From Octopus vulgaris (Eukaryota), in the NCBI GenBank assembly GCA_951406725.2, contig OX597826.1, positions 38,378,001-38,442,000 on the forward strand: a stretch of DNA of 64,000 nucleotides, read 5' to 3'. Below, piece after piece: positions 7,788 to 61,700 of the stretch. A model generated the notes under the pieces. The model had not been told where the DNA came from. It was given only the letters and a program-made list of their open reading frames with translations, and did not search any database. The translations under genes were made by a program, and so were the position numbers. Every line of letters begins with the position of its first letter. Position 1 is the first letter of the stretch.

Positions 7788-8145
7788 TTATCTGGTATTT
7801 CAATATTTCAGGGTTAGGAACCCAATCTTCAGGAAATCTATGGAGATGTTGATTGCTAACTTCTCTGGTCTGTAGTGTGTTATGAAGCAGAAAAGTTGCC
7901 TATCAACATTTATGTATATCTCTAGCCACATTTCGTTCTTTAGTCGCTACCTTCACTTAATATTATGTATATATATAATACTATATATATATATAATATT
8001 TATCGCACACATACTCACACGGCAGTAACTTTCGCCAACCGAATTCAATCACAAAGCTTCGGTCCGCTCGAGGCTATAGCAGAAGACACCTGCCCAAAGT
8101 GCCATGCAGTGTATATATATATAATGTTATATATATATATATATA

Positions 8146-8911
8146 TTCGAAGCCTTTAATCTTCAGTCAAGAACCGGATCATCCTTGCAATTTCAGCTGA
8201 TTAATCTTGAGATTGCTCCAATCTGGCCAGCCCCAAGGAAAAACTAAGCTAAGAGCATTTGATTCCTTGGAAAAAGGATCAAATGTGTATGAAACAAGGA
8301 CAGAAAAACGGACGATGTTACACGATTATAAATACAAAAAAATACAAAAAAATAATACGAATATAAATGCAAAAAAAACAATAATAATAATAATAATAAT
8401 AACAGGACACAACAACAGGTGTCTTTCAACCAGATATGAATTGAACTCAGCTGGCGTATTGAGTGAGAATTAAGCCTTACAGCAGATGAAAACAACGATG
8501 TTACCGTGCCAGTGGTCACGAGAGAAAAAGAGGAGCAAAGGAATTAAGGAGGGGGAGAAGAGAGTGAAAAAGAGGAACAAAGAGATTAAGGAGGAGGAGA
8601 AGAAAGAGAGTGTGCAGCCCGAAGAATCAAGGATTGGCAAGAAAAATGAAAGACAGGACAGTGAAGTGCAAAGTAAGAAAGGCAAATATATATATGAATA
8701 CAAAATGGGACAAGAACGCAAAACATTCAAATAGACGATACAAAAATCACGGGCGGGTCATTCGAAGCCTCTAATCTTCAGTCAAGAACCGGATCATCCT
8801 CGCAATTTTGGCTGATTAATCTTGAGATTGCTCCGATCTGGCCAGGCCCAAGGAAAAACTAAGCTACGAGCATTAGATTTCTTGGAAAAAGGATCGAATG
8901 TATATGAAACA
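8146..8911 (-). mobile_element. Diverged relative of the 780-bp array family (~615-bp unit with two rearranged-hammerhead repeats)
   Basis: Motif ttcgaagcc...tcttcagtcaagaaccggatcatcc...gattaatcttgagattgctcc at 8146-8219 and again at 8761-8834; (TA)n on both flanks. Confidence 0.8.
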
Positions 8912-9505
8912 ATATATATATGAAGGTTTGTCAAAACGTAATGCCATTTTGTTTAGGACAGGTATAATTACCAACACAGGAACATGTATCATACATCCCT
9001 ACCTCTCAACATAGTCACTGTTTCTCTCAATAATAATGTTCCACCTTCGAATGAGAGCATGTATCCTTGCCCCATAAAATCCTGTTGACTCTTCTTTGAG
9101 CCACTTCTTGAAGTGAAAACAGTTTGGGGTCAAAAACATGTCTGGAGTATTTTCTTTGAACTTTAAATATAGTTTGGTATAGTGAGAGAAAAAGAGAGGG
9201 AGTGTAGTTGTCTGTTATCTAAAGAAGATTTTTTTCCCTGTGGGTTTCTGCTGTATTTGCCAGCTTAAAAGCATTTATTGAATAGGTTTTATGTCCACTT
9301 GTGTGTGTGTGTTAAAGAAGGCAAAATATAAAACAAAAATAATGGTGTTCAGTAGTTGGTTCAATATACTGGCCACAGGAATTTCTGTCCAGGAAAGTTG
9401 TACATCTTCTTCTTTCTCTCACATACCCACTCTCTCTTATCATTACTCCCATCAACTCTCCTACATTTCTTTGTCTCACTTTCTCTCCCTCTCTTTTTCT
9501 TTCTG

Positions 9506-23210: not shown

Positions 23211-24228
23211 CATCTCCCACACTATCCTTCAGGCAATGCCTTTCCATTTTGTCTACTGGGACCAAGTGGCAAACTAACATGCTGTGAGGAAGAGGAAAGA
23301 TATTGTACTGGGGTGAGGTAAAGAGAATAGCTCTCTTGTACATCAAACAGCTGATACAATGAAAGAGAGATTGAATGGAAGATATAAATGCCAGAGGGAA
23401 AAGAGACACAACCGCACAGAATGATTAAGAGAAGATTTATTGATATAATGCGTGCCATATATACAGAATAGTAGACAGGCTGTCATGAGAACAAATGTAT
23501 GTGTGCGTGTGTTAAGTACATATAAGAATGGCAATGAAGAAGAAGACAGTGAAAGAGTCTATAACCATTGAAATGAGAAGTTAATATACACAAGAAAGAT
23601 AAGAATACCAATTCATAGTCAATTGTACACAGTAGTTGAAATACTGTATCAAGAAGTCACAGCTATGATGCTGAGCCGGTTACTGGTACAGGTCGTATGT
23701 GAAGTCGTGGCTGTGATGCTGCTGCCTGGGTCACTTGATACAGGAGTTCATGCAGGTTGTATATTTGCTGTTGGTCCATGGTGAAGTAATTTACAAACAG
23801 TGGAGTGATGGAACCTGGGTGAATTGCTTGCTGAGCTGTGTATGTAGAGAGATGATGGTGACAACAAAGTTGATAAGTCTCAACGTAGCTGTTGTGGAGT
23901 GATGTTGTCTGGAGCTGGTGCTGAAACTGGCTGTGTCTTGTGCGGTCAGTTGCAAGACCTTAAAAGGTCTGGAACCAAAAAACTTCAAAACGAGGTAAAG
24001 GTGAATTTTTATAAGGAGCAGTAGGCTCAAATGGGGTTGAGGACAGGTTGTTCCATGTGATTTTAATTATATGTGGCAGTTGGCACAATTGAGTAAGAGA
24101 CAAATTGCCCTAATGCCAACCATTCAGAGTAGTGGACACAACAGGATCCAAATAGTGGCCAAAGGCTAGCAGTTCCCTGGTACGTTCAAAAGCACATAAT
24201 AATATAAAAGCACATATATATATATATA

Positions 24229-27200
24229 TATAGGTAAACAGTAAAAATAATTACAGACATGGACAAGAACATGAAACGCCACAGAGACGACACAAGAACC
24301 ACAGGACGGGACATTCGAAGCCCTCAGTCATCAGTCAAGAACCAGATCATCTTAGCAATTTCGGCTGATTAATCTTGAGATTGCTCCGATATGGGCAGCC
24401 CGCCAAGGGAAATCTAAGCCAAGTGCATTAGATCCCCTGGAAGAAAGCTTCGAATGTATACAACACGAGGACGGAAAACGAACGAAGTACACGAACAAAA
24501 ATACAGAATACGTGACAACAATAAGAATACAAAAACGTAAAAACAATAACGGTAAAATAAAGTATAAAAAATAAACAACAAAACAAAACCAGGACGTAGG
24601 ACAAGGGTCTTTCGACAGGACGAATTGAGTATGGGGCTGGCTTGTGAAGTTGTGCCTAATGGCCACAGGGAGACGAACAAGTACGTGTTGCTTCAGCGGC
24701 TGCTGGAACGAAAAGAGCGCTCAACAGCGGCTAGCGGTCACGTGAGAACAAAAGACAAGAGAAAGGGACAGATGAAAAGAGAGAGAAGGTGGACGAGGGA
24801 GGAGAAGAAAGAGACAGATCGAGGGGGCTGGAGGTGAGAGAGATAGAGAAACGTAGAAGGGGGGGAAAGACGGATGGAGAGGGAAAGAAAGGAGGGGGAA
24901 TAAGGGAGGAGAGAGAGAGAGAGAAAGAAAGATTAAGAGTCGTATCAATGCTTGAGAAAAAATATACTTATCGTATAAGGACAAATGTGGATACGTAGCC
25001 GCCGATTATATAGGTAAACAGTAAAAATAATTACAGACATGGACAAGAACATGAAACGCCACAGAGACGACACAAGAACCACAGGACGGGACATTCGAAG
25101 CCCTCAGTCATCAGTCAAGAACCAGATCATCTTAGCAATTTCGGCTGATTAATCTTGAGATTGCTCCGATATGGGCAGCCCGCCAAGGGAAATCTAAGCC
25201 AAGTGCATTAGATCCCCTGGAAGAAAGCTTCGAATGTATACAACACGAGGACGGAAAACGAACGAAGTACACGAACAAAAATACAGAATACGTGACAACA
25301 ATAAGAATACAAAAACGTAAAAACAATAACGGTAAAATAAAGTATAAAAAATAAACAACAAAACAAAACCAGGACGTAGGACAAGGGTCTTTCGACAGGA
25401 CGAATTGAGTATGGGGCTGGCTTGTGAAGTTGTGCCTAATGGCCACAGGGAGACGAACAAGTACGTGTTGCTTCAGCGGCTGCTGGAACGAAAAGAGCGC
25501 TCAACAGCGGCTAGCGGTCACGTGAGAACAAAAGACAAGAGAAAGGGACAGATGAAAAGAGAGAGAAGGTGGACGAGGGAGGAGAAGAAAGAGACAGATC
25601 GAGGGGGCTGGAGGTGAGAGAGATAGAGAAACGTAGAAGGGGGGGAAAGACGGATGGAGAGGGAAAGAAAGGAGGGGGAATAAGGGAGGAGAGAGAGAGA
25701 GAGAAAGAAAGATTAAGAGTCGTATCAATGCTTGAGAAAAAATATACTTATCGTATAAGGACAAATGTGGATACGTAGCCGCCGATTATATAGGTAAACA
25801 GTAAAAATAATTACAGACATGGACAAGAACATGAAACGCCACAGAGACGACACAAGAACCACAGGACGGGACATTCGAAGCCCTCAGTCATCAGTCAAGA
25901 ACCAGATCATCTTAGCAATTTCGGCTGATTAATCTTGAGATTGCTCCGATATGGGCAGCCCGCCAAGGGAAATCTAAGCCAAGTGCATTAGATCCCCTGG
26001 AAGAAAGCTTCGAATGTATACAACACGAGGACGGAAAACGAACGAAGTACACGAACAAAAATACAGAATACGTGACAACAATAAGAATACAAAAACGTAA
26101 AAACAATAACGGTAAAATAAAGTATAAAAAATAAACAACAAAACAAAACCAGGACGTAGGACAAGGGTCTTTCGACAGGACGAATTGAGTATGGGGCTGG
26201 CTTGTGAAGTTGTGCCTAATGGCCACAGGGAGACGAACAAGTACGTGTTGCTTCAGCGGCTGCTGGAACGAAAAGAGCGCTCAACAGCAGCTAGCGGTCA
26301 CGTGAGAACAAAAGACAAGAGAAAGGGACAGATGAAAAGAGAGAGAAGGTGGACGAGGGAGGAGAAGAAAGAGACAGATCGAGGGGGCTGGAGGTGAGAG
26401 AGATAGAGAAACGTAGAAGGGGGGGAAAGACGGATGGAGAGGGAAAGAAAGGAGGGGGAATAAGGGAGGAGAGAGAGAGAGAGAAAGAAAGATTAAGAGT
26501 CGTATCAATGCTTGAGAAAAAATATACTTATCGTATAAGGACAAATGTGGATACGTAGCCGCCGATTATATAGGTAAACAGTAAAAATAATTACAGACAT
26601 GGACAAGAACATGAAACGCCACAGAGACGACACAAGAACCACAGGACGGGACATTCGAAGCCCTCAGTCATCAGTCAAGAACCAGATCATCTTAGCAATT
26701 TCGGCTGATTAATCTTGAGATTGCTCCGATATGGGCAGCCCGCCAAGGGAAATCTAAGCCAAGTGCATTAGATCCCCTGGAAGAAAGCTTCGAATGTATA
26801 CAACACGAGGACGGAAAACGAACGAAGTACACGAACAAAAATACAGAATACGTGACAACAATAAGAATACAAAAACGTAAAAACAATAACGGTAAAATAA
26901 AGTATAAAAAATAAACAACAAAACAAAACCAGGACGTAGGACAAGGGTCTTTCGACAGGACGAATTGAGTATGGGGCTGGCTTGTGAAGTTGTGCCTAAT
27001 GGCCACAGGGAGACGAACAAGTACGTGTTGCTTCAGCGGCTGCTGGAACGAAAAGAGCGCTCAACAGCGGCTAGCGGTCACGTGAGAACAAAAGACAAGA
27101 GAAAGGGACAGATGAAAAGAGAGAGAAGGTGGACGAGGGAGGAGAAGAAAGAGACAGATCGAGGGGGCTGGAGGTGAGAGAGATAGAGAAACGTAGAAGG

Positions 27201-28538
27201 GGGGGAAAGACGGATGGAGAGGGAAAGAAAGGAGGGGGAATAAGGGAGGAGAGAGAGAGAGAGAAAGAAAGATTAAGAGTCGTATCAATGCTTGAGAAAA
27301 AATATACTTATCGTATAAGGACAAATGTGGATACGTAGCCGCCGATTATATAGGTAAACAGTAAAAATAATTACAGACATGGACAAGAACATGAAACGCC
27401 ACAGAGACGACACAAGAACCACAGGACGGGACATTCGAAGCCCTCAGTCATCAGTCAAGAACCAGATCATCTTAGCAATTTCGGCTGATTAATCTTGAGA
27501 TTGCTCCGATATGGGCAGCCCGCCAAGGGAAATCTAAGCCAAGTGCATTAGATCCCCTGGAAGAAAGCTTCGAATGTATACAACACGAGGACGGAAAACG
27601 AACGAAGTACACGAACAAAAATACAGAATACGTGACAACAATAAGAATACAAAAACGTAAAAACAATAACGGTAAAATAAAGTATAAAAAATAAACAACA
27701 AAACAAAACCAGGACGTAGGACAAGGGTCTTTCGACAGGACGAATTGAGTATGGGGCTGGCTTGTGAAGTTGTGCCTAATGGCCACAGGGAGACGAACAA
27801 GTACGTGTTGCTTCAGCGGCTGCTGGAACGAAAAGAGCGCTCAACAGCGGCTAGCGGTCACGTGAGAACAAAAGACAAGAGAAAGGGACAGATGAAAAGA
27901 GAGAGAAGGTGGACGAGGGAGGAGAAGAAAGAGACAGATCGAGGGGGCTGGAGGTGAGAGAGATAGAGAAACGTAGAAGGGGGGGAAAGACGGATGGAGA
28001 GGGAAAGAAAGGAGGGGGAATAAGGGAGGAGAGAGAGAAAGAGAAAGAAAGATTAAGAGTCGTATCAATGCTTGAGAAAAAATATACTTATCGTATAAGG
28101 ACAAATGTGGATACGTAGCCGCCGATTATATAGGTAAACAGTAAAAATAATTAGACATGGACAAGAACATGAAACGCCACAGAGACGACACAAGAACCAC
28201 AGGACGGGACATTCGAAGCCCTCAGTCATCAGTCAAGAACCAGATCATCTTAGCAATTTCGGCTGATTAATCTTGAGATTGCTCCGATATGGGCAGCCCG
28301 CCAAGGGAAATCTAAGCCAAGTGCATTAGATCCCCTGGAAGAAAGCTTCGAATGTATACAACACGAGGACGGAAAACGAACGAAGTACACGAACAAAAAT
28401 ACAGAATACGTGACAACAATAAGAATACAAAAACGTAAAAACAATAACGGTAAAATAAAGTATAAAAAATAAACAACAAAACAAAACCAGGACGTAGGAC
28501 AAGGGTCTTTCGACAGGACGAATTGAGTATGGGGCTGG
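24229..28538 (-). mobile_element. Tandem array of 5.5 x 780-bp non-coding units, retrozyme-like, with rearranged hammerhead ribozyme
   Basis: Units start at 24229, 25009, 25789, 26569, 27349 and 28129 (last partial). Only ~3 differences seen (26290, 28039, 2-bp deletion near 28153). Flanked by (TA)n. Confidence 0.9.
24319..24385 (-). ncRNA. Candidate non-circularly permuted hammerhead ribozyme (repeated every 780 bp; 6 copies)
   Basis: Minus strand: agcaaUC^ucaaga-uuaauc-agccGAAAuugcu-aagaugaucuggu-ucuugaCUGAUGA-cugag-ggcu. Stem I ucaaga/ucuuga, stem III agcaaU/Auugcu, stem II agcc/ggcu. Confidence 0.7.
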
Positions 28539-28568
28539 AGCATAGATTCGGCTGAAATTCCTCTAATA

Positions 28569-28614
<46 letters not shown>

Positions 28615-28644
28615 TATTAGAGGAATTTCAGCCGAATCTATGCT
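28539..28644. repeat. Perfect inverted repeat centred on (TA)n at the array junction
   Basis: agcatagattcggctgaaattcctctaatatatatg-(TA)n-catatatattagaggaatttcagccgaatctatgct. Confidence 0.95.
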
Positions 28645-30794
28645 ATAATATGATGATTGAAACAGGGCCATTCATTAAATTTAGAAAAAATTTCATGAAG
28701 CATGAAGCATGCAAAAAATAAACAGAATGAACGTTTTTCATGGATGAGGAATGAGTTATTTCAAAAGCATCAATAATGAGGTCATAAAAAAATGCAATCA
28801 AATAGAGCATTGAGGAAAGCCTTGAGAAACGTAAAGAAATCCTGTTACAAAACACTCCCTTAAACTGAAAAATGACAAAGGAGATAATCAGAGCAATACT
28901 ATGTATGTTATTGCGTTACTGAAACCATATCTGTTGGATTTTCTTTTTTTACAGTAAACAAGTTGTCATTGGGCTTGAAACTTGGAACATATTCAAAGAA
29001 AATTAACCTTGTGCTAGAAATGATGGAATTCAAAAGAACTGTGTAAAAAAGCATAAACATCACATGTATCATTTTATCATTGCTCAAACATTTACGTCCA
29101 GTTAAATATTAGGATTCATTTTCTTTATCCTAACATACACTGGTTTCATATTTGAGACAGAATGTTAATTTGAACTGTTGTTTCTAGCAAAACATCCTGT
29201 CTCATCCACACTCACACATCAAATCCACTTCAAAATCAGAAACTACAAACCTTGTTCCGTTACTTTTAGCAAAATTGCTTAATTTACCTTATATCTCTAA
29301 AGAGTTTTCTTCTGTCAAGTATTTCCAAACATTTTGTGTTGCTTTTTAGCTAGAAATTTACTAAATTCCTGAAGGTCCTTTCTTACAAAAAAAATAATAA
29401 ATAAATAATAATAACCACAATAAGTGCAATCAGTTTTTAACGAAGAAAATTTTCTAAACTGTAACTTTTTCCATTGGACTGCTTTTGTTTCTAATAATTT
29501 TTACAGAGAAACAAACGAGCAAGAAGATTCACATTTATTTTTACAGCAATGTATCTTTTTGGAATTTCATTTACAATTTAATTTAATATTTTTCAATTCT
29601 GTTCATTTTAGAGTGCATAATACATATTTATTGTATTTATATGTGTATATCCTAGGATCACCACCCTCAAACAAAATTAACTGAATAGTTTTTAAATATA
29701 TATGAGAGATAGAGGGCTCTGGATATGCCCAAGCCTCTTCCTCCACAATGCAGGATACTGAACAATGTCACACCTGTGCCACACACAATATGCAGAAGGG
29801 AAGAAAATGTTCTGACTGTAACAATTTCTTCCACAATTCTTGTATCAAACTCACTCGACACACCATGGAATCCCTGCACCGGTAGCACTGCTCGTGCTGC
29901 CTAATCTCTGGTGAAGGGAAATCCCTTCCAACACTAAAAGCAGACACAGTGGTATGGCATGGTGGGGACTTGACCCCACTCAGTCTTGATGTGAATCTCC
30001 CACCTCAGGCAGTCACAGAGAATCATCGCCAAAAGTTGCCTGCACTTTTGTGGCCGAAATGCTAGCATTGTCTATAGACCAGGTAGTTGCTACCAACAGC
30101 CCACAAAGCTGGAACAAATTATTCAGTCTTGTAATGCTTGTTCTTTGGTTCCTATTAGCAGGTTGGGGTTCAATTCCCTCCACACAATATTGCATCCTTC
30201 AGCCATTCCTCACCAACTAGCCTCTTGTTTCTCAGGTTGCACACTGGCACCATCATTATGCATGTAGGCCTTGTCCAATTGTGCAAGAAGGCCCCAAGTC
30301 TAGGTCAATCACAAACTAATTGAGAGCACACATGCTGGCCTCAAGAGACACAATGCTCCTACCCACACTGGATATTCTGGACACTGTCCATCTCAAAGAT
30401 CCAGACCCTTCAGCATATATCAAGGATTTCCAAATCTCTGACAGTGACGCAGCCTTCATCATGTTCAGTGATGATGGGCCATTGCGCTGCAAGCTGCAGT
30501 GGTGGAGAAAATGGCCTGCAACCTGGTTACCTCAAAGATTAATCTTACCACACTCCACCAAGGCGGGAGCATGTTTGCTCCAATCTATCATTACTCCAAT
30601 GATCTTCATGGGATATTCCCCGCCATGCCCAAGATTTTCTCATATCAGCCAACCTGACTGCACTGAAGAACAGAGTGTGTGTGTGTGTATGTGTGTCCTG
30701 GTGTAAATGCAGTAAACAACAGAAAAAAGCAATACAAAAGGGACAACGTTTGATAAATACAATATGAACTTAATGCTTTATTTTGGGATTTTTT

Positions 30795-34006: not shown

Positions 34007-36743
34007 GACTCAGAAATCCACCTGCAGGGCTACATCCTTTTCAGATGTGACAGAGGAAAAAGGCGAGGTGGGGGTGTTGCTGTGTATGTTAAGTCTGAGC
34101 ACAAACCATCCAGCGGTATTCTACCCACTAATGCTCAACCTACAACAAAATTTGATGCCGTCTATTGCAAGCTGAGCCTATCTGAGTTTTGCCTGCCCAT
34201 GTTGGCTGTCTACAGGCCGCCTCTTGCCGACCCCCAGGACGATGCTCATTTACTCGAGGCGATAAGATTCGTTTCAGCTTCGCATGACTGTTTGGTACTA
34301 GGAGACTTCAACGCTCCCACGATCGATTGGCCCGCATCAATTTGTACATCTTCCCAGTTCGGCCAGGCCCTTCTTGACGTGGCTGAAGATTGTTTTCTAT
34401 CGCAACATGTTGAATATCCGACAAGGCATCGGTCTGGGCAGCAGCCATCTATGCTAGATCTGGTATTCTACCGCTATCCAAGATCAGTGTCAGACGTATC
34501 TGTGTGCGCCCCTCTTGCCAAGAGTGATCATGCGGTCCTGAAGTTCGTCATGCACACAACTTTTTCTACGCCCACGACTACTTCGCTGCCACGTAGAGTC
34601 TTCTCTGCAATTAATCTTGAAATTCTAACCGAGGCTTCCGCGCTTCTGGACTGGCGATCCCTGATGACGTTGTCCTCAGTTGACGAACTATGGTCATCCC
34701 TCAAAGCATATGTAATCTGTTTGACTGACCAGGCAGTTCCCGTTGGGCTTCCCAAGAGGAAGAAACACAAGCCCTGGGTGACGAAGAAAGTTAAACGAGA
34801 ACGTTGACTCAGAGATATTGCTTGGGCTGAATTCAAAAATCTGGATTCGACTGCAGCTTTTGAGGTGTACAAAACTCAACGAGACCGAGCCGTGAAAATT
34901 GAAAAGAAAGAACGCTTCAGTTATGAATACAAAATCGCGGCAAATGCCAGTAGCAATCCAAAAACCTTCTTTGCCCATGTCCAGCGGAATTCCCGCTTGA
35001 ACAACCAGATTGCAACGTTGGTAGACTCAACAGGCGTATCGATTGAGGACCCTTATCAACAGAGTCAGTTATTTGCCGAGGCTTTTTCAACTATTTTCAA
35101 ACAAGATGATGGTCGTGAACCCCCTCCATTTGTTAGATCGGTACCTCCAATGCTTCGATTGGTCATCACGCGGGACGAAGTCAAACGTGTTATTCAAGGC
35201 CTCGATGTCAACAAGGGTCACGGCCCTGACGGCATACACCCATGGGTTATCAAAGCGTTGGCTCCGGTCATCTGCGAGCCCTTAACACGACTATTCAATA
35301 TGTCATTGGCGACGGGTGTTATACCTGCAGACTGGAGAACAGCGATAATCTGCCCAATTTTCAAGAAAGGGAGCCGCGAAGACCCGCTTAACTACCGACC
35401 GGTTTCCCTTACATCAATAATCAGCAAGATGTTCGAAACCATCCTTAAGAAAAGTATGATGCTCCACCTCCTAAACACAGCCTCTATCTCTGATTCCCAA
35501 CACGGCTTCGTGCCGAAGAGATCATGCTTGACCAACTTACTAGTAATGGAAGAATTGGTGACGCGCATCCTCGATGATAGTGATGCTGTTGACATCGTTT
35601 TATTGGACTTTGCCAAAGCTTTTGACTCGGTAAACCACCACCTATTACTTGTCAAGCTTCAAGCATATAGTTTCCATCCGGATATTGTACGATGGGTTGG
35701 TGCCTTCCTCTCAGATCGCTCCTTCCAAGTCCAAGTTAATGGTTCGCGGTCCGACGTCTCCAGTGCGAGCAGTGGCGTGCCTCAAGGTTCAGTGCTTGGG
35801 CCCTTGTTGTTCTTAGTCTTCATAAATGACTTGCCCGACGACCTCACGCAACACACCCTTCTATTTGCCAACGATATCAAACTGGTCACTCCTCGCGGTA
35901 ATATAGAGGATCTTCGTCGATGCCTCCACCAAATTTGGAAGTGGTCTAACGATTGGGACCTGTGTCTGAACGTGTCAAAGTGCTGTCATCTGCCTGTCGG
36001 CTCTACTCCTGCAACTCAACTTGATTTCGAGCTGGGTCGTCTGCTGCTGGAGAGGACCGATCAGGTAAAGGACCTGGGTATCTTGGTGGATTCCTCCTTT
36101 TCGCCTTTGGCCCAGTGCGTCCATGCTGCCAACAAAGCACGCGGAATTCTGTTCTTGATTTGACGGTCATTCGGAATGCTCACAGCAGCCATATTCCTAC
36201 CACTCTATGTCACGCTGGTGAGACCCATATTGGAGTATGGGATTCAAGCCTCTTCTCCTTATCTCCTCAAAGACATACAGCATCTCGAAAGAGTCCAGAA
36301 GCTGGCTACCCGCATGGTTCATGGTCTCAAAAATTTGTCCTACGAAGAAAGGCTGAGGACGCTCGACCTTTATTCTCTTGAAAAACGACGCCGCCGTGGT
36401 GATCTCAGTCTCGCCCACAACATCATAAGCGGAAAGTGTAACCTCTCGAAAGAGCTGTTCTTCACTCCTGCTCCAGAGCGTCAGCTGCGGGGTCATTCCG
36501 AAAAGCTCTACCTGCGACGATTTCATCTCAATCGAAGAAGAGGAGCTTTCTCCGTCCGGGTGCGGATCCATGGAACAAGCTGCCTGACGAGATGGTGAAG
36601 ATGCCGACGACCGCTTTGTTCAAAGCCTCCCTGGACCTCAAGTGGCCTGAACTCTTTACATGAACACCACCCTGTACTTAACTCCATGTCCCCCTACATG
36701 GCCTTGGTATTTGCTTTTGAGCCAAATTAACTAACTAACTAAC
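34007..36743 (+). mobile_element. 5'-truncated CR1/L2-group LINE (APE endonuclease + RT), inactivated
   Basis: GDFNAP, SDH, GPDGI, NYRPVSLTS, QHGF, LDFAKAFDSV, GVPQGSVLGP motifs; YADD altered to FAND; stops at 34805 and 36161; frameshift near 36562; (TAAC)n tail. Confidence 0.95.
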
Positions 36744-48500: not shown

Positions 48501-50652
48501 CAGAAAAAGAATGACAGAATATTATAACAGAAGAAGAATGACAGAATATTTCAGAGAATATCAAATACTAAAGGATAAGAGAAACTGCAAACGACCAACA
48601 TCACAATTCTATATTCAGCCCAAACCTTCATTTTAATGTCCACATTTCCATGCATGTATGGGTGAGGAAGAATTCACAGGGGTCAATATTCTATAGTCAA
48701 ACATCCTTCTGGTCAACAACCCTGTTTGCAAGCAAAGTAGTATTTCCAAATGGCCAGAAAATGTTTTTACAGAAAGTAAGAAACAAACGACACTGCTTGT
48801 ATGACAGTGACACTCATTTACAACTGTCATGAGATGTCAAGGCAAGGCAACACATACACACACTTTCACACACACACACACATATATATACATTTAATCT
48901 TTTGAACTAATGGGTATATGTCGATTAGTGTGTTGAAGTGATGCGTAGGGTAGTGGCACAGTTAGGGCTGCCTGGTGTCATCTACAGTTGGGGTATATTT
49001 CTATTGGATCTACTACAGGAACTTGGCTGTGTTAGTTGAGATAATAATAATAGTAATTTCTTAAGTAACCAGAAGATGGATTTGGTATTAATCTTTATTT
49101 TGTACAATGGTCATTTCGACCCATCCTGCTACTGTCCCTTATGGGTGGGACTCTGTTCAACATGCTGTGTTGCATCCATTTTGCAGTCTGGGTCTCATCA
49201 GGCACATACATACATAAAGGTTTGTATCTCACTAAAGTTCCTGAGTTTAGGCTGTTGTGTTGTTATGTACCCATCTGATTAGGGAATGAAATAATGCTAC
49301 AATTTTCAATTACTATTATGTTTCTTTAATAAGAATTGCAGGCATTTGGCGATATAGACGAATAACTGTTGATAAAAAAAAAAAATAAATAAATCTGTAG
49401 GGGAAGTGAATGGATGGACAAGGATGGATTGAGTTTCATTGGGTTTAAGACAAAGGAAAGGCACTATAAAAAGGAAAGGGAAGATATATGCAGGCTAGAA
49501 TGTGTAGGGGGCGAAAGGTTGTTTAGCTAGCTTAGGTTGGGATGCATATACATACATTCTCGTACATACATTAACACAACGGACACCCATATGGTCAATT
49601 TTGGCCATAGTTCATATAATTTATGGTTGGAAGACAATCTCACCATAAGCTTGTCATCACAGTTACTGCAAGACTAGGGAAGCTCACAGACAGTCTGACT
49701 CATTCCACATCTATATCACTGAGGGTGAACCACACATCCCTACACCCATATATACACACCCACCTGCATAATACACTCACACATATACATACATACATAC
49801 ATACACATACATACACATGTCAATATGTATATATTTACACATACATATACATACACATACCCACCTACATACATTTTTATACACACACATACACAGGTGT
49901 AATCATATACCCATATATATACGCACACACATCTACACCTTCTTCCACCCTGTCACTTGCTCTCCTTTCCCCTATTCTTACACCTGGGTAACCATGTATC
50001 TTTTATATCCCTCTATCACAATCAAACTTCCCCTCATCCCTTGGCACAAAGCCATTTTCCTCAGCTAATGGGAGGAGGGGTGGAGAGGAGGAGGGGAGAT
50101 GAGGGGAGGAGGAGGGGAGATGAGGGGAGGAGGAGGGGAGATGAGGGGAGGAGGAGGGGGATGATGATGGTGATGATGATGATGAGGAGGAGGAGGAGGA
50201 GGGATTTGTAAAGAAGCTACTCACTCAAGCTGAGATTCAAGCTGACTGATTTGCACTTTAAAGTCACTTATGGTTCTGTCCTGAAAAAGACATAAGAAAA
50301 CAATGAACACACAAGGGAAATAAATTAAATTCAGTGCAACGTTCTAATAAGCATAGAACTTAACTTTCATACTCATGACTAATGAGAGAATAATAACAAC
50401 AATAATGATGGTTTCCTTTATTCATCTTTATTATAAAGATGAAACCAACAGACAACAATGATAGTCAACAATTTGTTTGGAGATTTACATAAAGGACAGG
50501 GAGAAGAAATGGAAAAAACTGTGAAAGGCAATAAAAGTATGCAAAGTATGTGGTCACATGACTGATGCAGTCCTCCTGATAAAGGAGAAACTTCAGCTAG
50601 GGCCAATCAAGGAACCCCACAGGCCCAGGATTATCCTGACCACCAAATGTCC

Positions 50653-55716: not shown

Positions 55717-58700
55717 TATATACATATAAGAGGGATGACCATAGTGGTCATCCTTCTTATATATATGTAATACAATTTACTGAACTTTCAGGTTTTAATA
55801 TGCTAGACCACTGGTGTTAAATTGATGTTAAATTAATATCCAATTTCTCACCCTCATTTTAAATTTATATATATATATACACATACATAATATGTCTGTA
55901 TGTAATGTGGTGGTGTGTGTAATGAGGTGGTGTGTATATGTTGAGGAGGGTGATTGAATTAACTGGAGCAAGAAAACTAAGTAGAGCAAGGAAAACATGA
56001 AGGAGACAGGTGGAGGTGGAGATTAGGAGGGTTAGTTTGTAAAAGGAGGATGCCCAAAATTGGGCAAGATGGCAAGATGGTGTGAGGGCAATTGCTATGG
56101 CACTGAGGTAGATCCAGCCACGCCCCTTGATAGGGACAAAACCTGGATTTAAAACACTGTAAAGCCGAAATATAACAATCTGCTTAATTATCATCACACA
56201 ACACTTGCAACATACTTTAAACCTGAAAATTTAATCAAGCATCAATATAAATTTCTTAACCTTTTCGTTACTGTATTTCTGTTGAGATGCTCCGTGTTTT
56301 TCTCAATTATTTTAGATATAACAAAGAATCTATTAAAATAACATAGTTATCATTAAGCTAGTGTTAGGAACATTAATTATAACTAAGGTTTGGTGGAAGA
56401 TTTTAATTTGAAACTTATGTAAACAAGACATTTGTACGCCAGAGCCAGTTTCAGCCCCAGGTTCATAATGAAAGGGTTAAACCACCTCATCCTGAAGGGG
56501 CTTAGTGAAGTGTATTCTTGCATTTGGCTGATGTCTTATTTTTGAGAACAACCTCAACAGGTGTTATTAGTGCCCTCTTTTTTCCTATGAATGATAATAA
56601 AAATATAAATTCATTAAAAAAAAATCTTAAGACTGCAGCTCAACTATTTAACCCTTTAGCATTCGGATTAATCTGTCAATAGAAATGCTTATTTGTTCAG
56701 ATTATCTTAAAAGACATCATGTATTATCTCATAGCTCTGGGATTTCAATAATGTGATTGTTTATTTTTAGAATGACATTGTCAGCCAGATGTGAGAGGCT
56801 GGATCTGGCCAGTTTGATTATGAAACAGATAAAATATTTGGGCCAGATGTGGCCAGTTTAAATGGTAAAGGGTTAAGATAAGAAATTACCCGAAGTCTTT
56901 CTTGTAAGCTGTCTCTCTCCGTCATTATTCTCTGAAGGTCAGCTGAGGCATTATCTCGTTCATTCTCTACTTGGCGCAACACGGCTTGAGCAGCTAACGA
57001 TGTTCTGGGTGATTTTGGAGAGCGAAGTATTTCTCGTCTCAATTTCTGGAGTTCCTCCTTGGCCTTTAATGATATGATGAGTTAATTTATTACAGATAAT
57101 TAATTAGAGAGTAATTAAAGTAAATGAAACTGTAGTAGAAGAATGAGATAACAGAAGAAAGAGGCAGAAAATAGGTTTTCATTACATCCACCAACACTGC
57201 TCAGAAACCAATTAAAGGATGGAGATGAAACAGAAAAGCCATAATCCAAACTGTTTTATCAAGAGTTCTTGGAATATATTGTCAAGAATTATTCTACAAT
57301 AAAATTATACAATGGTTTGAACAAATAACAGCACTAAACATTTAACACAATAATAATTCCTTCTGACTTCGGCACAGGACCAATTATTAACGAGTCACCA
57401 GGTAGACAAATGATTCAACTCAACTATCTACTCCAGGTAAACAGGTGAGACAATATTTAATATTGCTATCCTCACCCCCGCCCTGCACCAAATTGAAAAA
57501 ACTGTGTGACTAGAGAACCCACAATTCAGGAGAGGACTCAGTATATTTGGAATGCATTGTATATTAGAATTTACTAAGAACAATATCACACACCCACACA
57601 CCACCACTATCACCATACACACACCACACATACAGGTTGCCCCTGGCAACTGGGAACAAAACAAACTACAATAAAACAAACAAATAAAAAAAAACATCAT
57701 ACAGAAAACTATTTCTCCCAGAAAAATGAGACACATGTTCAAGCAAAAATATCTCTGAAACAGGCCATTAGATAAATCCTCCTTCATTCCCTAATGACGG
57801 CCCCAATGCAGCCAGGAAATAACAGCATACCAGGATCAAGTGGCTCCCACCTATGCCCTCCACCATGCTCATGATGGCAACCCTCAATGTGCCCCTGACA
57901 CTATGGAGGCCACTGTCTGGTTTCATCCCTGATGATGCTCCAAAAGTAGAAATCTACAGGTTTGAAACCCAGAGAGCCAGGAGGGCACATGCTTTTATAG
58001 GTACATGATTACATGGTACTCGCAGAACTTCACAGACATGTGCTCTCCCTCCTCATCACATAGGATCAGCACCTGAGGTCTTTCTGGGCCATATGCCTGA
58101 TGGTAGACTTTGCCACTTTTGTGCCCTCATCACAGACATAAGAAAAAAAATAGGAATGAGATAATTGATAAATGAGAACCAATGAAAGAACTTACTCCAT
58201 CATACATGTCTTTGAGGTTGTCTCGTTCTTTAGTTAACACTTTTACATTAGCACGAACCTACAACAAAATAAAAATGTATTTGTAATAGCAAGAATGATG
58301 ATGACGACGATGAAGAGGAGGAGGTGAAAGTATTGCGGCAAGAAGGTGCAAGTGTAGTTGTGTGGTAAGAGGTTTTGCTCCCCAACCACATGTTTCTAGG
58401 TTCAGTCCCACTACGTGGCACCTTGGGCAAGTGTCTTCTACAGTAACCAGAGGCCAACCAAAGCCTTCTGAATGGATTTGGTAGATGGAAACCAAGAGAA
58501 GCCCATCATGTATATATATATATATAAGAGAATAAAGGGTATGTACACCGCTATATATATATATAAAATACCAAATGGGACAAGAATGCAAAACATTCAG
58601 AAGACAATACAAAAAACACGGACGGGTCATTCGAAGCTTTCAATCTTCAGTCAAGAACCGGATCATCTTCGCAATTTTGGCTGATTAATCTTGATATATA

Positions 58701-61700
58701 TATATATATATATATATATGAATGAATGTGTGTGTGTGTGAGTGTGTGTGAGTGAGTGAGTGCATGTCTATGTCTCATTGTCGTTATATTGCATGACAGT
58801 TGTAAATGAGTGTCACTGTCATACAAGCAGTGTCCTTTCCAATATTCCGTGAAAAACGTACCTGGCCATGGAGGAGAAATATTAACTTGCTTAGAAACAG
58901 GTGATGGTTGGCAACAGGAAAGGCATCCAGCCCTAGAAAATATACCTCTACAAATTCCATCCAACCCATGCAAGCATGGAAAAATGGACATTATAATGAT
59001 GACGATGAAAATGATGATGATGATGATGTGTGTGTATAGGTAAAGAAGCTTGCTTCCAAGCCATGTGGTTTTGAATTCAGTCCTACTGGATGGCATCTTG
59101 GGCAAGTGTCTTTTATTATAGACCTGGGACAACCAAAACCCTGATGAATTTGAAGAAGTTCATCGTGTGTGTGTGCACACACGTATGCGTGAGTGTGTCA
59201 TGCTTACTGATAGTGACAAAGAATCTTTGTTTTGCAAGTTACTTGGAGTCCCTACCAATGCTGGTACCATGTAAAAAGCATCCAGTCCACAATGTAAAGT
59301 GTGGTTAGCATTTGGAAGGGCATTTGTAAACAGCCATCTTTCCCTTTTTCTGACAAGGATGTAGTCAATTTGACTAGTGTGTCTGCCAGAATGGAAGGTG
59401 ACTAGGTGACTGGTAGGTTTCCTGAAGTTAGTATTGCAAACCATAAGATCATTTGCATCGCAGAACTCCAGCAGTCTGGTTCCCTCCTCATTGCGGGAAC
59501 CAAAACCGTAGCCTCCATGTATGCCATGGAAGCCCCCTGTATGTTGTCCAACATGTCCATTGAAGTCACCAGCCACAAAGAGAAGATCCTTGTCATTTTT
59601 CAACGAGGTAGTCTGCAAGAGGGTGTCATGAGGAACCTAGCGGAACCTCCTCTTCACCTTACTTCTTGGAGGCAGCACAAATCGACACATCTCCATTCAA
59701 GCATCTCAACAATCTCACCAGGCCTACCTTTCAGTGTGCCGACGTTGAGAGTGCCAACCCTGAGGGTATGGGAGGTGTGGGCCTGTGAGACCCTGGGACG
59801 GGGGACAGCAGTGTCATGTACCTGAAAAGAAAGCTTGCATTTGGCAGAATTCATAAACAAACAATAGCCTTCAATTCAACCTGCATACACTACACCATCA
59901 TACTTATGCACTATATGATCACTACCTTACATAGGAAATAAACCCTAAGTAGGGGTGGGGATGGCGTAAAGCCTTTAGAAGTGTTCATGGGAGACAACCA
60001 AAGGATGACAGAGGATAGGAACTTCCACAGGTAGAGGGGGTGGGAGGGCGGGTGTACTGCGAATTAGCAAATTTAGACGAGAGCATCTTCTGGATACATA
60101 TTCTTTCAGCAGAGGTATTTAAAATTAAGTAGGGCAATCCGAGTGCGTGCGTTAGTTTATATACAGTGGGGTGGGGAGTCTTGGCGAAGCAAGTGGTAAT
60201 CGAAAGAGAGAGAGAGACAGACATACAGACAGAGTGAGGCTGAGAGAGAGGGAGACAGAGTGAGGCAGAGAGAGAGAGAGGGAGTGCCAGAGTTGGTCAG
60301 AACACGAGGGAGAAAAATATTTTTGGGGATTGGGATTTGGGTACATTATTTAACGAAACAGCAAATTTAGATAATAGTAAAATAGAATTGAAAAATCTTA
60401 GAATTTTTAGTCAGTCAATCTATGACAAAATTAGAGAAATAAGTGGTGGTGTGATAAACTTGAATAAATAAATATGTGGCGATTAAAGGATATGTGTGAA
60501 CTAAGGCTATCTTAAGGCAACAACGAGGAAGACGAAACTATTGAAACTATATTTACATGTTTACATGGTAATGAAATAGATAGAATAATGAAAAGAACTA
60601 ATAAGGGGTTTATGATCTGAGCAGAAACAGAAGAGTAGACAAACAAGGTTGAAAGACAAAATTACTTATTTGATGATCATCTGAGATTCGTATCCTTTTG
60701 GCAGAGGTATTGGTTGTAAAACAATGCCTCAATAATATACTCCTCTGATCCATGTTAGCATGGCAAAATGAATGTAAACACACACACACACACACGCATA
60801 CAATTCTTACCTCGTTCATATGACGTTCAAATTTCTCAAGCATGTCTTTCATCTTGTCCCTTTCTTCTCTTGCTTTCTGTAATTCTTCATCATTGTAATT
60901 CTGGTTCTAACAAGAAATGTTCAGAAACATGAGTGACAAAATCAGAACTGTTCATATGAGCAACATAAAGGGTTGCTATCATCACTAGTAAAGAAAGAGC
61001 CAGCCATCAACTGCAAGCAAGTAGGGTTTGCTAGCATGTACCATGCTTTCACTAATTGTTTTAGGTGCCTGTGGAGTCATGAGCAAACACAGACAACCAA
61101 TCATCCACCTCCCATTTTTTGACCCAGTGGCACATTTAAGATGTGACAGCTGATGTTGGAGAGGGCTGCACCAGCACTTAACAGGTTCTCATGTTCAGGA
61201 GAGGAGACTATAGCAATGAAGTAAAGTGCCTTGCTCAAGGACACAATGTCTTGTCCAGGAATTGAAACCAGGATATTATGATCGTGAGCCCCTAACCCCT
61301 AGGCCAAGTATCTTTGTGACTTACCCATTATAAGTACAAATAATTCATTATGCATCATTTCTGTGTGCTAGGGTAGGTAGGTACTTTGAAAATGCCTCAT
61401 ATAGTAATAACCAAAACCTGCACAGTTCCAAGCTTCCTTTGGCAAGGTATAGCACTTGTTTGGTCACTCTGCCAGGGATGCAGCAAACCCATGGGACGGC
61501 AGCACAGTGGGCAGTGAAGAGGTTAGCAGAAGGGTTCAACTAAGCCAATGGTGCTTCTTACAATGATGCTGAGCAGAGGAATCCAAAGTCAGCAGTCAGG
61601 ATCACTAAGATCAATCAAGAGAGTAACTGCAACACATCTGGTGAAATCAGCTAATAGAAGATTCATTATGAATCAAGTTTCAAATTCAAATATGAATAGA

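Follow-up and report, generated by a model that had tools for sequence, protein, structure and literature searches.

Insertion ends of a non-coding octopus repeat form a cliff at the predicted cleavage site of a hammerhead-like fold

The 64,000-nt stretch of Octopus vulgaris DNA analysed here (the window) carries coding exons of CEP135 on its minus strand, one of which, at 56890-57063 (-), is 100% identical to CEP135-like of Octopus sinensis. A search of the ESM Atlas with the CEP135 exon returned generic coiled coils only. Between the exons at 60805-60906 (-) and 58193-58258 (-), upstream and downstream of it respectively, lies a 5'-truncated repeat copy at 58525-58694 (-), set between two (TA)n target runs (58511-58524 on the left and 58695-58719 on the right, the latter forming the junction at a predicted ribozyme cut). 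Because CEP135 is encoded on the minus strand and the copy lies between its exons, the ribozyme strand is sense to the gene within an intron, as the initial annotation had placed it. For CEP135 itself, the copy is likely irrelevant. A weak match to Rfam Hammerhead_1 (24.7 bits, with a gathering score of 34) is present at 49100-49207 (-), inside CEP135 and on its sense strand. The window also holds reading frames at 59160-59636 (-) and 36164-36595 (+), which resemble fragments of a LINE endonuclease and of a LINE C-terminal region.

The junction of the copy reads ...ggctgattaatcttga|tatatata with the last base of the element at 58694, which places its end at the predicted hammerhead cut and its RNA-sense 5' end at UCAAGA. 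In the initial annotation this junction, which can be written as ...gattaatcttga|tatata, was set against copies that continue with gattgctcc. This contrast is borne out by eight other copies in the window, which read ...cttga|gattgctcc (8210, 8825, 24378, 25158, 25938, 26718, 27498 and 28276). The junction 12-mer has 11 matches in the window at one mismatch or fewer, compared with 0.63 expected; two of these are one-mismatch matches outside the repeat, leaving nine clear repeat copies. The junction is ambiguous by one base, as the final A may come from the TA run. Positions 58522-58694 align end to end with other genomic copies at 87-89% identity, including a ~30-nt extension at 58525-58551 (-) past the usual 3' end that resembles the optional 'tail' of Penelope elements in the available sections of PMC8557442 and PMC11167929.

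The copies that run through the site fall in two places in the window. A tandem array of 5.5 units of a 780-bp subfamily occupies 24227-28538 (-) and contains six intact predicted sites; the four full units compared differ by 0-1 base. A dispersed copy at 8686-8912 (-) passes the site at 8825|8826, and a longer, more diverged copy at 8145-8685 (-), whose right end is approximate, passes it at 8210|8211. Directly at the end of the array, at 28538-28645, two perfectly matching inverted arms of ~30 bp each flank a TA run; this inverted repeat accounts for strong but sub-threshold miRNA matches in Rfam.

Genome-wide searches showed that the repeat is a non-coding, TA-targeting unit of roughly 700-850 bp. 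Across the 2.8-Gb genome, the 16-mer whose last base is at the site was matched in 5,226 places, and 625 further places of a second subfamily pass the site, so that more than 5,800 copies were counted, all of these counts being lower bounds. The unit has a fixed RNA-sense 3' end, ~125-140 nt downstream of the site, which abuts a TA run in 84 of 117 copies; five copies carry the tail, and 28 were not scored or are of other kinds. The 5' ends are variable and spread over the unit, and tandem and inverted pairs occur. One copy (L034/L118, near 14,210,800-14,211,700 of G000:C1) spans a complete unit, including an intact site, and stops precisely at the following site, as would a copy of a linear template longer than one unit that had been cut at just one of its sites. 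In another copy, which stops at the site, the sequence continues directly with a piece of the element in inverted orientation (L048, around 1500), and inverted pairs are also present at L113/L114 and L012. The lack of coding sequence, the uniform 3' end with truncation at varying 5' positions, the tandem copies, the occasional tail and the microsatellite target are all traits of non-autonomous Penelope-like elements and retrozymes, and they agree with the accounts of Penelope-like elements in the available sections of PMC8557442 and PMC11167929. No partner open reading frame joined to the copies was found in the 180 loci scanned. Frame fragments that we take, from their motifs, to be of Penelope-type reverse transcriptase lie within 1.5 kb of copies at L033, L046 and L112 in either orientation; they probably reflect co-targeting of TA runs, and the likeness of the repeat to Naiad elements is one of architecture only. 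The repeat behaves like a non-autonomous Penelope-like element with a putative autonomous partner.

On the minus strand, the predicted ribozyme elements follow one another in the order GGCUG, a joining-helix strand, GGA, GCAAUC, the cut, UCAAGA, a 5-nt linker, CAGCC, GAAA and UUGC, and then a 3-nt bulge with GAU, a joining-helix strand, UCUUGA and CUGANGA. The blocks are thus arranged in the S-G-C order described by Eckert et al. (PMC10085705, available sections), and the circularly permuted block order of the Rfam hammerhead types I, II and III is absent. The Rfam scan of the window gave no ribozyme match on any repeat copy, and the miRNA matches are TA-run artefacts. Plain folding does not yield the pseudoknotted fold.

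The truncated copy retains the downstream half of this arrangement. UCAAGA at 58689-58694 (-), the stem I strand after the predicted cut, would be the start of the 3' product. It is followed by CAGCC at 58679-58683 (-), the 3' strand of predicted stem II, whose partner GGCUG lies upstream of the cut and is absent from the copy. The G block at 58671-58678 (-) reads AAAA-UUGC in place of GAAA-UUGC. The strand at 58665-58670 (-), a 3-nt bulge followed by GA and U, is by the motif consensus a putative kink-turn-like strand. GAUCCGG at 58658-58664 (-) contributes a strand to the helix that connects stem I with stem II at their outer ends. The C block at 58644-58656 (-) consists of the stem I partner UCUUGA and the core CUGAAGA. 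The initial annotation had considered the copy inert because it lacks the cleavage strand and carries GAAA->AAAA. Both observations hold: the copy ends before the cleavage strand, and the plus strand reads TTTT at 58675-58678, the changed base being the G12 position at 58678. Three strands are missing altogether, namely the cleavage strand, the upstream strand of stem II and one strand of the joining helix. Position G12 has a role in the hammerhead, and with the missing strands and this change the copy would be inert. GAAA->AAAA is a CpG-type change found in 5 of 113 sampled copies, as well as in the window copy at 8686-8912, which passes the site. The truncated copy differs from closely related copies by several CpG-type changes, of which this is one; it was likely acquired by CpG decay once the copy had inserted, and is thus uninformative about the RNA template.

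An alignment of 37 rows was built from 35 of 60 loci and two window copies, the other 25 loci having failed a filter on the flanks and the core. Because the search anchors include the post-cut strand, the linker and CAGCC, invariance in these parts is by construction. CUGANGA is present in 37 of 37 rows, although the filter demanded it in 35 of them, and N, which is A, G, U or C, is its sole variable position; among all 60 screened loci, it is intact in 54, changed in four and lacking with its region in two, as judged by eye. GAAA is present in 34 of 37 rows and UC in all 37, where the search anchor dictates the C. Pairing reaches 99.5% in stem I, 98.9% in stem III and 88% in the joining helix. 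Stem I shows two compensatory pairs between subfamilies (A-U to G-C and A-U to U-A), stem III one (C-G to U-A, three rows) and the joining helix two; these are five events between a few related subfamilies rather than many independent ones.

Stem II would be completed by a strand from an unusual place. Contiguous candidates following A9 were rejected, GGCU being 75% paired and CUGA pairing in 23-30 of 37 rows per pair. The upstream GGCUG pairs with CAGCC in 95.7% of cells but shows no covariation within the repeat family; in the predicted fold, this strand would complete stem II and the core strand would be interrupted after A9. Pairing of the post-A9 strand with an upstream CCUUGG was dropped, since CCUUGG is taken up by a hairpin of its own and the strand after A9 has its partner in an outer stem. 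The element that we take to be kink-turn-like consists of a variable 3-nt bulge, GA in 35 of 37 rows and an opposite GGA in 32 of 37; a bulge takes its place in one subfamily. In several subfamilies, the cleavage strand can be sequestered by a small alternative hairpin (GAUYG-GAG-CRAUC, alignment columns 99-111), which might serve as an off state of the ribozyme.

Comparison with the type-SGC hammerheads (HRIMA-1 and variants; Eckert et al. 2023, PMC10085705, available sections) showed that both place the cleavage strand first, followed by the GAAA block and then the CUGANGA block; in both, stems I and II are separated by a short linker and their outer ends are connected by a helix. Stem II directly follows CUGAnGA in the published family, whereas its 5' strand lies upstream of the cut in the octopus repeat, whose predicted fold leaves the chain open past A9 and connects the joining helix with stem III through a kink-turn-like loop. 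The same sections assume that the core strand cannot be interrupted after A9, and they describe members of the validated family whose stem III leads straight into the joining helix, a precedent for the geometry proposed here. As the octopus hammerhead would work like the SGC type but fails on an uninterrupted block C, it was filed as a variant rather than a member.

The Naiad Penelope-like elements (Craig et al. 2021, PMC8557442, available sections) share with the octopus repeat the (TA)n preference, 5' truncation, partial tandems, inverted copies and an optional tail of 30-40 bp. The octopus repeat has no coding sequence and no sequence identity to Naiad in the ribozyme. However, inspection by eye of the published 3' end of Naiad_Ovul, marked 'HHR_half_core', showed the same wiring ~120 nt from its end in unrelated letters: GACACC/GGUGUC before GAAA, CGGAU/AUCCG, a cut after GUA, CUGCCC/GGGCAG and CUGAUGA. 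This wiring, stem II included, supports the split-core model, which had been drawn from the alignment before that comparison. The sections of PMC8557442 at hand report no canonical hammerhead in Naiads and describe cephalopod Naiads as long inactivated, whereas the array in the window looks young.

The initial annotation had taken the end of the single copy as independent support for in vivo cleavage. One copy proves nothing, and copy ends were therefore counted genome-wide as copies that switch from the consensus to ten A/T bases, on the forward strand only because gapped patterns repeat rows on the reverse strand. In the main subfamily, with bins that use differing anchors and denominators measured for part of them, 240 ends fall 30-12 nt short of the cut (19 positions, 12.6 per position), 553 fall 11-5 nt short (seven positions, 79 per position) and 96 fall 4-2 nt short (three positions, 32 per position). 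The cut class, with ends after G or GA, holds 79 ends over two positions (39.5 per position), and the cut base itself holds ~76 if the 96 of 100 listed rows that keep the terminal A are assigned to it. Beyond the cut, only 25 ends are spread over the next eight positions (3.1 per position), and 109 lie 9-32 nt beyond the cut (~24 positions, 4.5 per position, some A-rich copies that do not end being included). The density thus drops more than tenfold per position directly past the predicted cut (79 in two positions vs. 25 in eight, binomial p ~2e-34). Copy ends are far from the uniform distribution that would have spoken against cleavage. The anticipated peak at UCAAGA is not found, the mode lying 5-11 nt short in an AT-rich stretch, but the enrichment at the cut and its edge are there. 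The cut is not the commonest end but the edge of a cliff, and it is as a cliff at the level of the family, rather than through any one copy, that the proposed origin from self-cleaved RNA finds support.

Counts made without the A/T requirement showed that 425 of 5,226 copies leave the consensus at the cut base and 4,801 (92%) pass the site. Among the first 30 copies leaving there, 23 truly end, six are point mutants and one is unrelated, so that ~6% (4.8-7.2%) of the copies reaching the cut stop exactly there. In 96 copies passing the site, ends beyond it occur at 0.10-0.43% per base; these ends were called against natural full units, and some calls are alignment breaks rather than true ends, so this background is overstated. 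As a rough estimate, between a quarter and a third of the copies reaching the 12-nt zone end within it, given that A/T-joined ends capture about half of the true ends at the site and that the anchors differ. The passage of 92% of copies and the six intact sites in the array indicate that cleavage is not fast and complete, unless templates re-ligate.

The position of the largest end classes in ATTAAT is what would be expected if no cleavage took place, with reverse transcriptase stalling in a structured region, ATTAAT giving the easiest join to (TA)n and the edge at the cut arising as a by-product. The predicted GGCUG/CAGCC helix adjoins the pile-up, and 87 of 100 nearby junctions merge seamlessly into TA. 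However, the pile-up begins after the enzyme has copied CAGCC, and the cut, with one base of microhomology, collects far more ends than the GATT just past it, which offers better AT microhomology. In the next 500 nt beyond the site, AT-rich stretches included, no 12-nt window collects more than 4 of 32 copies. A small GAUUG/CAAUC hairpin does end at the cut base in some subfamilies, with a pairing of ~0.6-0.7 in one of six copies, whereas a subfamily without this hairpin also ends at the cut (6 of 23 enders vs. 15 of 96 passers, no significant difference), and in the RNA upstream of the site, folded for six copies, none of the helices stops there consistently. The junctions differ as well. By eye, 38 of 100 listed cut-class junctions keep the A and then break phase, four end at G and 58 are ambiguous by one base; non-seamless joins to the TA run thus make up 42 of 100 junctions at the cut and 13 of 100 two to four bases short of it (p ~6e-6, from these by-eye tallies). 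Reverse transcriptases add extra bases at the end of a template, and the excess of non-seamless joins fits a template that simply ends at the cut with extra bases added. Stalling and joining alone are an unlikely source of the edge.

A second, older subfamily shows the step in a weaker form. Ten of its 30 loci end at the cut, one ends one base short and nine end two bases short, three of these nine being ambiguous through CpG decay; the remaining ten end in the next eight positions past the cut, five of them at one base. The step has p ~0.001 by the permissive count and p ~0.04 by the strict one (6 vs. 8).

A defined 5' end of any origin would produce the same cliff, and the RNA might instead owe its start at UCAAGA to transcription initiating there or to a protein nuclease. 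On a capped RNA, a C would tend to be added to the cDNA, whereas only ~10 of 100 listed exits show a C after the site, and point mutants are among these. Moreover, the edge falls on the exact base predicted from the independently conserved hammerhead core. Even with the internal start sites that Penelope-type repeats carry (PMC8557442, available sections), we regard such an origin of the end as improbable. Selection against insertions with a complete, active ribozyme could also inflate the share of copies that stop short, in keeping with the sense intronic position and the incompleteness of the copy at 58525-58694; the mapped CEP135 coding exons span 39225-63000, and neither the intact array nor either of the two read-through copies falls within this interval. 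Selection, however, would be expected to give a step where the fold is completed, at least five bases past the cut, and would not concentrate ends in 12 nt; as it also presupposes cleavage, it is a very unlikely explanation of the cliff.

The footprint as a whole is probably driven by a ribozyme, and the copy at 58525-58694 was likely reverse-transcribed from an RNA that had cut itself at the predicted hammerhead site. The ratio of ends at the site to background ends makes a site-specific route its likely origin. In the proposed mechanism, read-through or multimeric transcripts would fold into the S-G-C-ordered hammerhead with stem II completed by the upstream GGCUG, and would cleave after AUC slowly or incompletely, given that the site is passed by most copies and by entire arrays. 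A Penelope-like reverse transcriptase, probably of Naiad type, would prime from nicked (TA)n ~125-140 nt downstream of the cut and, on cleaved templates, would run off the 5'-OH end. The cDNA may then be joined in full, frequently with added A/T, or be trimmed first as far as the closest AT microhomology, which would generate the pile-up. Uncut, circular or re-ligated templates would give rise to the longer copies and the tandem arrays. The slow rates measured for extended type-SGC constructs (0.007-0.13 per min; PMC10085705, available sections) would fit partial cleavage here.

Related elements provide parallels to this mechanism. Animal non-LTR retrozymes and Penelope hammerheads (PMC4209133, PMC11167929 and bioRxiv 10.64898/2026.07.22.740005, all in their available sections) likewise comprise non-coding tandem and dispersed hammerhead repeats linked to Penelope, with internal priming and a tail. 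Unlike the octopus repeat, the hammerheads described there are minimal and dimer-forming, with a very short helix III. The sections available state that evidence of in vivo cleavage is lacking for these hammerheads. For another Penelope element, those of PMC11167929 report that cleavage was not needed in vitro and that no RNA-seq reads began at the site, which counts against the reading proposed here. The accessible part of the bioRxiv paper makes no mention of octopus, cephalopod or 'cleavage site'. In the R2 retrotransposon, an HDV-like ribozyme follows the same logic, self-cleavage defining the 5' junction of the element (PMC3774820, available sections). However, the ribozyme class and the element are different, and the cut is the normal 5' end there, whereas it accounts for a minority of ends in the octopus repeat. 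The literature searched, whose coverage lay outside subscription journals and bioRxiv supplements, held no description of the octopus element or of the end footprint in the text available.

On balance, we lean towards the broader view that a split-core hammerhead, broken between A9 and stem II, S-G-C in order and closed by a kink-turn, is the active ribozyme of Naiad-type elements and their non-coding passengers. The insertion junctions would then record cutting in the germ line in vivo, with cut and with uncut or re-ligated RNAs both retrotransposed. If true, this places an SGC-like, split-core hammerhead in an animal genome, whereas the defining paper (PMC10085705, available sections) found the type only in metatranscriptome and metagenome data and none in the genome of a known organism, and it would explain why Naiads were missed by hammerhead searches. 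Any such family in any assembled genome can be tested cheaply by looking for a cliff of insertion ends at its predicted base. In the octopus, thousands of insertion junctions would amount to a germ-line record of ribozyme cutting at nucleotide resolution.
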